Sequence record: KM389362.1
Source of the DNA: Escherichia phage Phi05_1387 B
DNA: 4,647 nt
Strand: one strand, 5' to 3'
The position numbers were made by a program, and so were the translations under genes. Below, in pieces: positions 1,518-3,303 of this stretch. A model generated the notes under the pieces. It saw only the letters and a program-made list of their open reading frames with translations. It did no database searches and was not told the origin of the DNA. Position 1 is the stretch's first letter. Each line of letters begins with the position of its first letter.

Positions 1518-2135
1518 ATGACCACTATTACCAAAGAACGTATTGAATTGTTCATTAAAAATCCGCTTGAAAACGGGCTTACTCGTGGCGAACAAATGGA
1601 ACTAGCACGAATTGCACTGGCATCACTGGAACGCGAACAGATTCGCCACGAGCATGCCAAATGGTCTGACTCCACATTTGGCTGCGTTGGCCCCATTGGT
1701 CCACTGAAACACCTCTCAAAAGAGGCACTGGAAGCCGCAGCCGAACCAGACGATCTTAGCGAGTGGGCTGATATGCAGTTTCTGTTGTGGGATGCACAGC
1801 GCCGTGCTGGCATCAGCGATGCTGAAATTACCGTTGCTATGGAAGATAAATTGAAGATCAACATGGAGCGCCAGTGGCCTGAGCCAAAAGATGGTGAGCC
1901 TCGCTTGCACATTAAAGAACCCGGCAACTCTCCGGTAACTCCGGATGGTTGGATAAGCTGTAGTGAGCGAATGCCCCCTCAAGATGATTGGATTTTAATT
2001 TATTCAAAGCACGGCGAGTATATGGCAGGACAGGTACAAGGGGAATACGTGGAGTTGAGCGATGGCACTTTATCGTGGTTAGGGAACGCCTTGTTCTGGA
2101 TGCCGCTACCGGAACCGCCGCAGGAGGCGAAGTAA
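1518..2135 (+). CDS. DUF550-like (annotated dATP/dGTP pyrophosphohydrolase) N-terminal domain fused to DUF551-like C-terminal domain
   Basis: ATG at 1518 follows GAGGA (1506-1510) at 7-nt spacing. The C-terminus ...GWISCSERMPP...WMPLPEPPQEAK (WMPLPEPP encoded at 2097-2120) matches the DUF551 hallmark common in enterobacterial prophages. The N-terminal half (LSEWADMQFLLWDAQRRAGISDAEI) resembles the DUF550 domain. Stop is TAA at 2133-2135. Confidence 0.7.
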   Translation: MTTITKERIELFIKNPLENGLTRGEQMELARIALASLEREQIRHEHAKWSDSTFGCVGPIGPLKHLSKEALEAAAEPDDLSEWADMQFLLWDAQRRAGISDAEITVAMEDKLKINMERQWPEPKDGEPRLHIKEPGNSPVTPDGWISCSERMPPQDDWILIYSKHGEYMAGQVQGEYVELSDGTLSWLGNALFWMPLPEPPQEAK

Positions 2136-2257
2136 TGAACAAGTGCAACGCTCTGCTTTATGCCATGGTGATTGGTTTCGGCCTGGCTGCTGGTATCCGG
2201 GTTTATATTACCTGGGAGTCATTAATCAATCTGGCGTGGAGTGCGATTCGTGGCTAA
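2135..2257 (+). CDS. Small predicted membrane peptide (40 aa), hypothetical
   Basis: ATG at 2135 overlaps the upstream stop (TAATG) and follows GGAGG (2123-2127) at 7-nt spacing. Product MNKCNALLYAMVIGFGLAAGIRVYITWESLINLAWSAIRG has one hydrophobic stretch long enough to span a membrane. Stop is TAA at 2255-2257. Its short length makes it uncertain. Confidence 0.45.
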   Translation: MNKCNALLYAMVIGFGLAAGIRVYITWESLINLAWSAIRG

Positions 2258-2588
2258 ATCCCCCGCAGAACGCAAAGCCGCGCAGCGCGCTCGGCAGTCC
2301 GCCGCCGGTGAGCGCAAAATTGAACTGGTGCTGGATAAGCAGGAGCAGGAAATGCTGGCGCGGAACTGCGCCGCCCGGCGCCCTGGTCGCGATCCCTATG
2401 AAATGTCCGAGTACATCGCGCTGCTGATCCGCCAGGATGATGCACGTGTGCGCGGGCGTATAAAATCGATCAGCAGAAAACGTTGCGGTAAGTGCGGCGA
2501 GAGAGTTCCCGTTAATTCATGCCCGTGTAATGGTGACTCGCAATGCTGGGTGACTAAAGGCTGGCATGAAACGAAATTAATAGTGTGA
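2241..2588 (+). CDS. Small basic protein with C-terminal Cys-rich (zinc-ribbon-like) motif; possibly YlcI/YnfO-like (low-confidence family call)
   Basis: GTG at 2241, or GTG at 2250 which has GGAG (2238-2241) at 8-nt spacing and gives MAKSPAERKAAQRARQ... The product is a charged helix-like region (ERKIELVLDKQEQEMLARNCAARRPGRDPYEMSEYIALLIRQD) followed by C-x2-C-x9-C-x-C-x5-C (CGKCGERVPVNSCPCNGDSQC). It sits immediately upstream of the small terminase gene, where YlcI/YnfO-family genes lie in E. coli DLP12 and Qin. The 5' half is GC-rich. Stop is TGA at 2586-2588. Confidence 0.55.
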   Translation: MRFVAKSPAERKAAQRARQSAAGERKIELVLDKQEQEMLARNCAARRPGRDPYEMSEYIALLIRQDDARVRGRIKSISRKRCGKCGERVPVNSCPCNGDSQCWVTKGWHETKLIV

Positions 2589-2709: not shown

Positions 2710-3303
2710 ATGCCTGCTGAACCTAAAACCTATAAACGCAAATCAACGCAATTTAAGCCACTAACAGCAATGCAGGAGGCTTATTGCCAGTCATACATCA
2801 AAACGCCTGAAAACCAGACTCAGGCAGCGATTAACGCAGGATTCTCCCCAAATACAGCGGCAGTTAAAGCCAGTGTCATGATGCGCGATGAACGCATTCA
2901 AAAACGGATTGCCGAGTTGATGGAGGAGCGCAACAAACGAATGCGCGTCAGTGCTGATTACGTTCTCATGCGCCTGGTGCAGATCGACCAGATGGACGTG
3001 ATCGACATCCTCAACGACGATGGGAGCCTTAAACCAATCCGTGAGTGGCCGAAAATCTGGCGCACTACGCTTAGTGGCTTTGATCTGTCATCGACCATCA
3101 TGAACATGAACGAGGATTCGATAGAGACAATCCTCAAAAAAATTAAATGGCCTGACAAGGTGAAGAACCTTGAGCTGATTGGTAAGCATGTTGATGTCAA
3201 CGCGTTCAAAGAACGTCTGGATGTTAATGTGAATGTGACAATTGCTGATCGCATAGCAGCAGCCAGGAAGCGACTCAAAGAACGTCAGGATGGTAATCAG
3301 TGA
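2710..3303 (+). CDS. terS: Terminase small subunit (Terminase_2 / P27-like HTH type, tentative subfamily)
   Basis: ATG at 2710 follows GGTGG (2700-2704) at 5-nt spacing; ATG at 2707 is the in-frame alternative. The N-terminal region (about 2761-2920) reads LTAMQEAYCQSYIKTPENQTQAAINAGFSPNTAAVKASVMMRDERIQKRIAEL, which matches the helix-turn-helix pattern of this small-terminase family. Stop TGA at 3301-3303 overlaps the GTG of the next gene. The track's ATG at 2629 would translate through the terminator hairpin and is rejected. Confidence 0.8.
   Translation: MPAEPKTYKRKSTQFKPLTAMQEAYCQSYIKTPENQTQAAINAGFSPNTAAVKASVMMRDERIQKRIAELMEERNKRMRVSADYVLMRLVQIDQMDVIDILNDDGSLKPIREWPKIWRTTLSGFDLSSTIMNMNEDSIETILKKIKWPDKVKNLELIGKHVDVNAFKERLDVNVNVTIADRIAAARKRLKERQDGNQ

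Follow-up and report, generated by a model that had tools for sequence, protein, structure and literature searches.

A small membrane-peptide gene and a gene for a putative palindrome-binding protein close the early-right operon of an epsilon15-like prophage

Just upstream of the terminase genes in a stretch of 4,647 nucleotides (nt) from Escherichia phage Phi05_1387 B (sequence record KM389362.1; the whole stretch is called the window, and coordinates are positions in it) lie two short, co-oriented genes. One encodes a membrane peptide of 40 residues (2135-2257, + strand), the other a conserved protein of 112 amino acids (aa; 2250-2588, + strand, GTG start). A preliminary description of the window took the two for a GC-rich insert that had been acquired as a unit, which raises the question of whether they belong together at all, and of what the conserved protein does. 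We consider it fairly probable that two functionally independent genes close the early-right operon of an epsilon15-like prophage here, and that the second encodes a regulator which binds a short palindrome and acts on transcription at operon boundaries. This reading starts from observations on the reality of the genes, on their independence of one another, on their family membership, and on the co-occurrence and placement of protein and motif.

The central element is a perfect palindrome of 12 base pairs (bp), GTGACATGTCAC (GTGAC-NN-GTCAC), at 2585-2596, which spans the TGA stop codon (2586-2588) of the 112-aa gene and is the proposed binding site of its product. The non-coding half of the palindrome, CATGTCACG, is kept in 41 of 41 distinct intergenic variants from E. 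coli, Citrobacter and Klebsiella, even where the adjoining 3' sequence has been replaced. Exact copies of GTGAC-NN-GTCAC lie over the stop codon of the gene not only in the window but also in epsilon15, in phage N15 (GTGACTGGTCAC at gp46, whose product is 35% identical, BLASTP E 9e-22) and in a Paraglaciecola prophage (TTGTGAC-AG-GTCACAA, at a homologue of about 34% identity). In 20 Mu-like loci and one further Mu-like locus, GTGACCGGTCAC or a variant of it falls within the last 29-53 nt of the gene. P2-like loci carry exact or one-mismatch copies at +19 to +53 nt or slightly further; taken overall, the motif lies there mostly at +19 to +540 nt and otherwise up to 3.4 kb downstream, and a few loci are without it. 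In a second P2-like clade, a few loci have no copy; most have two, separated by 33 bp, within a conserved block that adjoins the 3' end of the portal gene. In one P2-like relative (locus L100, 4762-4791), the palindromes GTGACAGGTCAC and GTGACCGGACAC stand next to each other within the N-terminal extension given to an open reading frame (ORF) call that resembles DNA polymerase III theta/DUF3283, where they read as a repeated VTGH; they probably lie 5' of the real start codon.

Whole genomes give the same motif a defined set of locations. Epsilon15 holds 3 exact copies where 0.039 are expected, each beside an intrinsic terminator, and phiV10 holds 2 exact copies together with a one-mismatch copy that spans the ends of the record. 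The phiV10 record is cut inside this last palindrome, and its end joined to its start reads GTGACATGTTAC, one mismatch from the consensus. In both phages, the sites are found at the stop codon of the 112-aa gene equivalent (gp49 in epsilon15, p55 in phiV10), just after terL, and at the end of the structural operon; read on the relevant strand, each presents a stop codon, 0-8 nt, the palindrome, 1-42 nt, and then a hairpin with a T-run. The second site recurs some 2.2-2.5 kb downstream in most related contigs, a distance that fits the end of terL. N15 contains 3 exact copies in its right 18 kb (record positions 28550-28561, 33237-33248 and 39269-39280) and none in its left 28 kb even at one mismatch; three matches in the right 18 kb were reached by 0 of 200 shuffles, one mismatch being allowed in the shuffle count. 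The N15 sites are located at the gp46 stop, between the stop of gene 33 and the terminator preceding the gene 32-30 (anti-repressor) unit, and inside repA. No exact palindrome is present in 100.7 kb of control DNA that lacks the gene, which comprised lambda, five Klebsiella prophage segments, phage SJ46 and an E. coli K-12 segment.

Other identities of the motif were considered and rejected. A CRP/FNR site does not fit, as the core is TGA-N4-TCA and not N6, and neither does the Sop centromere of N15 and F, in which the sopC site is TGGGACCACGGTCCCA. A promoter scan read the palindrome as a -35 element (GTGACA-N18-CATGAT, 2585-2614), but the other copies have no usable -10. Conversely, the ACTATTACCA direct repeats were discarded as sites of the 112-aa protein, being annotated in epsilon15 as operators of the prophage repressor. 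The records of epsilon15, phiV10 and N15 do not annotate the pairing of palindrome and gene, and a literature search found no paper that contains GTGACATGTCAC or describes a pairing of gp49/gp46 with the palindrome. The association that sequence comparison shows between the gp49/gp46 family and a matS-like palindrome of 12 bp, placed across the stop codon of the gene itself and beside terminators, appears to be new.

The 112-aa gene most likely starts at the GTG at 2250 and not at 2241, because the Prokaryotic Genome Annotation Pipeline (PGAP) calls it there, a GGAG lies 8 nt upstream, and all homologues begin with MAK or MAL. Its product matches phrog_536 (E 6.2e-54, residues 1-111 on positions 2-114 of 115), the family of epsilon15 gp49, phiV10 p55 and N15 gp46, for which the label "transcriptional regulator" is annotation only. 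The phrog_536-type family numbers 153 representatives at 50% identity, with lengths of about 105-135 aa. The protein matches no Pfam family at E<=0.1, and searches of NCBIfam, PADLOC and PDB sequences gave no usable match. This includes DUF3950 (PF13132-type; YlcI/YnfO), which had been suggested as its family: it gives no match at E<=0.1 and is absent from the 25 families listed for 56 members at E<=1. DUF3950 proteins are small prophage proteins encoded just 5' of the terminase genes in E. coli cryptic prophages. A literature search returned no study of epsilon15 gp49, phiV10 p55 or N15 gp46, and the passages retrieved from the paper on a "regulatory protein" of vB_EcoP_ZX5 cover the repressor, the integrase and the anti-repressor, not the 112-aa gene.

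The conserved features of the protein are a basic N-terminal AERKxxQRxR (with R8 and R13), a PY...EY..LIR.D segment and a C-terminal C-x2-C...C...C. The cysteine motif noticed early on, C-x2-C...C-x-C...C, is indeed present (C79-x2-C82...C91-x-C93...C99); among 56 sequences with identities as low as 24%, C79 and C82 never vary and C99, R8 and R13 are nearly invariant, and distant members have exactly four invariant cysteines. A nucleic-acid-binding product, as was first proposed, is a plausible prediction given this conserved motif. AlphaFold2, supplied with the family alignment, predicts the structure with a mean local confidence score (pLDDT, predicted local distance difference test) of 91, with helices at 5-19, 30-42 and 52-74 and a C-terminal knuckle. 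The best structural matches of the predicted monomer, in two fold searches, are ribbon-helix-helix (RHH) proteins. The model weakly suggests this fold class, with a basic N-terminal helix, an RHH-like core and a four-cysteine knuckle, and the modelled protein is probably dimeric. Pfam RHH models (RHH_1, RHH_5 and others) appear below threshold in 5 of 56 members (best E 0.013), none reaching it, and a Foldseek search of viral models yielded nothing beyond a fragment from this same family, which carries the wrong label "ubiquitin-binding zinc finger".

The statement best supported by these data is that the 112-aa protein may be a sequence-specific DNA-binding protein with GTGAC-NN-GTCAC as its target; it draws on the RHH-like fold, the nearly invariant arginines, the zinc knuckle and the co-occurrence of protein and site across four phage architectures. 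We infer both the binding and its consequences, which could run as follows. The protein, with a zinc-binding knuckle, would bind the 12-bp palindrome, including the copy over its own stop codon. Binding close to the terminators would set transcription across operon boundaries, either by block or by read-through, and binding at its own 3' end would give feedback on the synthesis of the protein. The position of the sites, between a stop codon and an intrinsic terminator, is what favours control at operon boundaries. A wider claim, that the gp49/gp46 family and its palindrome form a previously undescribed DNA-site-directed, terminator-proximal switch between stop and read-through, is put forward with considerable doubt. 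If true, this switch would be distinct from N/nut, Q/qut, the put RNA and RfaH/ops, and would be common to temperate phages of podo-, sipho- and myovirus type in gammaproteobacteria.

Several points weigh against boundary control by the 112-aa protein. Its link with the motif is correlative, as drawn from comparing sequences. The small terminase gene terS has a promoter-like element and repressor operators, and read-through from the early operon is not obviously needed. In N15 and the Mu-like relatives the family is not the sole late regulator, as the former encodes a Q-like antiterminator and the latter encode Mor. Simple terminator assistance fits poorly with the Mu-like sites, which stand within an operon and have no terminator close by; simple antitermination fits poorly with the terL-proximal site, since the terminator that follows it belongs to a leftward gene. 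In the one P2-like clade, the site block beside the portal gene may be cos. Finally, compact phage genomes offer few non-coding places, spacers next to terminators being among them, and the placement of the sites could be passive.

The alternative that survives best, although we regard it as unlikely, makes the 112-aa protein an activator or antiterminator of late genes, a counterpart of RinA/Ltr, Q or Ogr by which terS and the structural genes would be switched on. With the 112-aa gene the early genes end, directly 5' of a terminator and terS; by analogy, this position would match that of the RinA-family activators, which lie before terS in staphylococcal phages (PMC3152322). In the phiV10 and epsilon15 records no Q-like antiterminator is annotated, and each lists one small activator on the opposite strand (the PerC-type p34 and gp31, respectively). 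The three palindromes are located at the junctions of successive rightward transcription units, and the C-terminal CxxCGxxLP...C resembles, below threshold, the RNA-polymerase-binding finger of TraR/DksA (E 0.04; hhalign 39%). However, terS, gp3, the tail-fibre gene and the lysis genes carry repressor operators and appear to be directly controlled by the repressor, and relatives of the protein coexist with Q in N15 or with Mor in Mu-like phages. Read-through at the post-terL site, where the terminator belongs to the leftward gene, would yield antisense terL RNA, and the likeness to TraR/DksA is accompanied neither by a Pfam zf-dskA_traR match nor by an entry for TraR or DksA in the two fold searches.

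It is quite improbable that the 112-aa protein has no direct role in transcription and acts as a MatP-like organiser, bridging palindromes for looping or compaction, for packaging, or for the marking of cos or of recombination points. The palindrome shares its half-sites exactly with matS (GTGAC-RNY-GTCAC), from which it differs by having one base less in the spacer. The sites border modules that are exchangeable (the identity of terS-terL varies independently of the 112-aa gene), and cargo genes are inserted directly beside the sites; the pair of sites 33 bp apart in the P2-like clade stands beside the portal gene, where cos is expected. Against this, hhalign gives a probability of 0.3% for MatP, and the model contains no MatP-type four-helix bundle or coiled coil. 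A common role in packaging is unlikely as well, given that the packaging systems are unrelated (pac-type Terminase_2, lambda-like cos, P2 cos and Mu).

We place equally little trust in the idea that the palindrome is not the target of the 112-aa protein and would instead be a site for a host factor, a part of the terminator at the RNA level, or a passive remnant of recombination. The motif does abut terminator hairpins, and all lineages appear to be gammaproteobacterial, where MatP-like host factors exist. Yet it tracks the gene across the four phage architectures at 24-35% protein identity, lies over the stop codon in four lineages and is absent from the control DNA without the 112-aa gene. 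As RNA, the palindrome gives only a 4-bp stem, and prophages are reported to avoid true matS (PMC3603311).

The question of whether the two genes form a unit turns first on the reality of the smaller one. The ATG at 2135 is preceded by a Shine-Dalgarno sequence, AGGAGG (2122-2127, + strand), 7 nt upstream, and the encoded peptide has a single segment of transmembrane length (Kyte-Doolittle 19-residue maximum 1.85 at residues 7-25), in agreement with the strong ribosome-binding site and the one membrane segment of the preliminary description. The peptide matches phrog_5525, a phage protein of unknown function, over its full length (E 7.6e-30, residues 1-40 on positions 1-40 of 40), and both genes belong to PHROG families that already exist and are uncharacterised. 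Searches of Pfam, NCBIfam, PADLOC and PDB sequences with the peptide gave nothing usable. The gene is annotated by PGAP in related genomes, and its homologues show 75-98% identity in E. coli, Klebsiella and Citrobacter and 45-50% in the P1-like phage SJ46. Comparing the window with Citrobacter gives a ratio of non-synonymous to synonymous substitution rates (dN/dS) of 0.18 in the gene's own frame; the value is 0.08 between Klebsiella and Citrobacter and 0.23 in the comparison with SJ46. In shifted frames it is at least 0.6, and enrichment at synonymous sites is confined to the gene's own frame. By these measures, the 40-codon ORF is a real and conserved gene under purifying selection. Near-identical copies in E. 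coli differ only non-synonymously (A18D, A18V, T26A, N2D and C4R+R22L), in numbers too small to interpret.

The ATG of the peptide gene overlaps the TAA of the gene upstream (TAATG), a fusion of dATP/dGTP-pyrophosphohydrolase (PF04447) and DUF551 (1518-2135, + strand), and a promoter scan predicted no promoter 5' of 2135 for the peptide gene or the pair. The peptide gene is translationally coupled to its upstream neighbour. Through this coupling, the 40-residue peptide would be made in lytic growth and placed in the inner membrane, where it might act as a small modulator.

The two genes have separate distributions. Among 5426 complete E. coli genomes, the second gene and the terS region are found in 1259 and the peptide gene in 199. 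In 78 of 80 related viral contigs terS lies directly 3' of the 112-aa gene, and in the window this gene is the last before the packaging module, as had been noticed. The gene on its 5' side is by contrast highly variable: over 79 contigs it is ASCH-like in 41 and the peptide gene in 23, the rest being DUF2591-like and others, so that the slot holds at least ten unrelated families (at least eight besides the peptide and ASCH-like ones). Several of these families, including the three largest, share the 8-nt overlap onto the start of the 112-aa gene (2250-2257) that the peptide gene has, for which the preliminary description had noted an out-of-frame overlap. Unrelated upstream genes (ASCH-like, DUF2591-like and peptide) hence have the same C-terminal ...G, and the arrangement resembles a fixed recombination joint. 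In Klebsiella lambdoid prophages, the peptide gene is the last of an ea-like string, after a DUF551 gene; downstream come a gene in reverse orientation and the nin region, and neither a 112-aa gene nor a terminase is nearby; in SJ46 it stands among unrelated small genes, again without the 112-aa gene. Nucleotide homology of the window to other phages starts at about 2251, and the 112-aa gene keeps 82-85% nucleotide identity across phages of E. coli, Klebsiella and Enterobacter while its flanks vary. The independent occurrence of both genes means that the pair is not a cassette; the peptide gene is interchangeable cargo in a slot beside the core 112-aa gene. Variable accessory genes at the ends of early operons are the rule in mosaic temperate phages, and in this respect the peptide and its slot are ordinary.

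Base composition had been a main argument for a joint acquisition, and here the genes part as well. The GC content over 2261-2420, estimated at about 65%, is 65.6%, the highest of any 160-nt stretch in the window (mean 50.7%, standard deviation 5.3, z 2.8), and falls to 50.6% over 2421-2588 and 39.6% over 2589-2699. The anomaly stands for the 5' half of the 112-aa gene (2253-2420), where the observed GC of 0.643 exceeds the 0.574 expected from its amino acids and neighbouring codon usage (z 3.1). It does not extend to the peptide gene, whose 48.8% is under the window mean and whose composition is as expected on the same model (0.504 observed, 0.497 expected), so that a GC-rich insert of two genes is reduced to half of one gene. 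About half of the excess follows from the Ala/Arg/Gly/Pro-rich sequence, and the remainder is synonymous. Of the homologues tested (N15, Mu-like and P2-like relatives, epsilon15), nearly all show the same excess in the 5' half, which makes it a trait of the family and not a mark of recent acquisition here. GC at third codon positions in this half is 0.70; no embedded repeat or RNA family accounts for the excess, and an Rfam search of the whole window gave no match.

A single acquired moron-like cassette of peptide and cysteine protein, whether a toxin/antidote or regulator pair or one for superinfection exclusion, is almost certainly not the explanation: the shared orientation, the 8-nt overlap and the corrected GC excess of the 112-aa gene would suit it, but the genes occur apart in E. 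coli genomes, viral contigs, Klebsiella prophages and SJ46 where a toxin and antidote would be obligate partners, the same overlap joins the 112-aa gene to unrelated neighbours, the peptide gene is ordinary in GC, the 112-aa gene stays conserved across hosts' phages while its flanks change, a PADLOC search of both proteins found no match, and in place of a moron's own transcription signals there are a coupled start codon, no predicted promoter and only a terminator after the second gene.

The surroundings of the two genes are consistent with this picture. BLAST against E. coli genomes and phage records identifies the window as an epsilon15/phiV10-like (Uetakevirus-type) prophage, and the equivalents of the 112-aa gene, epsilon15 gp49 and phiV10 p55, are the last genes of the early-right operon, directly 5' of terS. 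The order in the window, 5' to 3', is an Ead/Ea22-like gene, a small ORF, the fusion gene (1518-2135), the peptide gene (2135-2257), the 112-aa gene (2250-2588), terS (Terminase_2) and terL. In the closest E. coli genome, the region of 1518-2135 is annotated as multiple pseudogene fragments.

Between the palindrome and terS, the spot at 2597-2637 behaves as a hot spot for the insertion of cargo. A comparison of the 124-nt and 310-nt intergenic forms identifies an 8-codon remnant, MHDEFDGF* (2606-2632, + strand), of an optional 71-aa gene, of which the window retains only the ATG and the last 7 codons; in the 310-nt form (loci L027 and L035-L042), the full 71-aa ORF, MPKIRYDLEDMRDN...DEFDGL, directly follows the palindrome. 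In a 456-nt form (L055, L058, L065 and L067), which is without the terminator hairpin, the inserted module combines an element resembling a promoter with a LexA-box-like TACTGTTTAAATATACAGTA and an ORF of about 125 aa, in which inspection by eye suggests a UmuD/S24-like product; a 413-nt form (L069) has yet another ORF. In the window, the early-right operon ends at a terminator-like hairpin found by a terminator scan, GCCGCC-AACTAT-GGCGGC followed by TTTATTTT (2638-2663, + strand), which is conserved in the E. coli and Citrobacter forms and whose equivalent is annotated in epsilon15 as a rho-independent terminator.

This hairpin is followed by a candidate terS promoter, an extended -10-like TGgTACTAT (2667-2675, + strand; TGnTAnTAT in all variants), and by tandem operator-like ATTACC-N5-GGTAAT palindromes (2674-2690 and 2692-2708), the second of which overlaps the ribosome-binding site and start codon of terS. 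The window has 2 matches to this motif against 0.06 expected; with up to 2 mismatches, epsilon15 has 18 (1.1 expected) and phiV10 has 15 (about 1 expected). The equivalent site is annotated in epsilon15 as a binding site of the prophage repressor, its arms being conserved and its spacer variable. Copies are found in the immunity region and 5' of terS, gp3, the tail-fibre gene and the lysis genes, a placement which implies that the prophage repressor directly controls several late units, and terS seems to have its own repressor-controlled promoter. The terminase small subunit gene (Terminase_2, Pfam E 1.4e-29; 2710-3303, + strand) likely starts at the ATG at 2707 or 2710, after GGTGG at 2700-2704, and the 594-nt annotation of terS in TL-2011b and EC.W1-9 fits such a start. 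PGAP and the phiV10 record place the start at a TTG at 2629 (224 aa), in a frame that would cross the terminator and both operators.

Altogether, these results correct annotations (the terS start, the 112-aa gene start and an unexamined "transcriptional regulator" label) and pair a conserved protein, predicted to bind DNA, with a candidate site at three defined locations per genome. The epsilon15-like phages, in whose records a Q-like antiterminator is missing, include serotype-converting Salmonella phages and O157 phages.

A comparison with known systems places each product more precisely. The peptide resembles small phage membrane peptides and type I toxins such as Hok and TisB in having about 40 residues and one hydrophobic helix. 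It differs from such toxins in that it has no homology to any named family (Pfam, NCBIfam and PADLOC searches), that neither an antisense RNA (Rfam) nor an own promoter is evident at its gene, and that this gene is embedded in a translationally coupled early operon. In position, the 112-aa gene is like those of RinA/Ltr and lambda Q: no other regulatory-type gene stands between it and terS with the late genes, and a terminator lies next to it (PMC3152322). Unlike them, its product shows no sequence or fold relationship to these regulators, terS here has a repressor-controlled promoter-like region of its own, and N15 carries both a Q-like gene and a member of the 112-aa family. The C4 zinc fingers of DksA/TraR (F TraR, lambda Orf73, YbiI) are likewise small and often encoded by phages or plasmids, with a helix followed by CxxCGxxIP...C. 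The family profile reaches E 0.04-0.06 against F TraR and YbiI over residues 48-109, below threshold, and hhalign gives 39% probability for TraR, so that this likeness of the C-terminal half is suggestive but below any threshold; the spacing differs (C-x2-C-x8-10-C-x5-9-C in the 112-aa family, C-x2-C-x17-C-x2-C in DksA/TraR), and the 112-aa protein has an extra N-terminal half.

With the RHH proteins (Arc, Mnt, CopG, MetJ and ParD-type antitoxins), the 112-aa protein would share its small size, a predicted strand-helix-helix pattern (KIELVLD, helix 30-42, helix 52-74) and a palindromic target. In contrast to them, it has an unusually long conserved loop between the helices (RRPGRDPY) and adds the basic N-terminal helix (R8, R13) and the C-terminal four-cysteine knuckle, and its proposed sites lie at the 3' ends of genes by terminators and not over promoters. 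The comparison that extends furthest is with MatP/matS of E. coli. Homology to MatP itself was rejected on the hhalign value, obtained with the E. coli K-12 protein, and the 112-aa protein is phage-encoded and, as modelled, has a zinc knuckle in place of the four-helix bundle and coiled coil. The phage spacer is 2 nt and not 3 (12 bp against 13 bp), the 13-bp form occurring at one locus only. Both proteins would nevertheless contain an RHH element, if the model of the phage protein holds, both systems have few sites dispersed over the replicon, and the half-sites of the phage palindrome are identical to those of matS, which raises the question of cross-talk between phage and host proteins on each other's sites.

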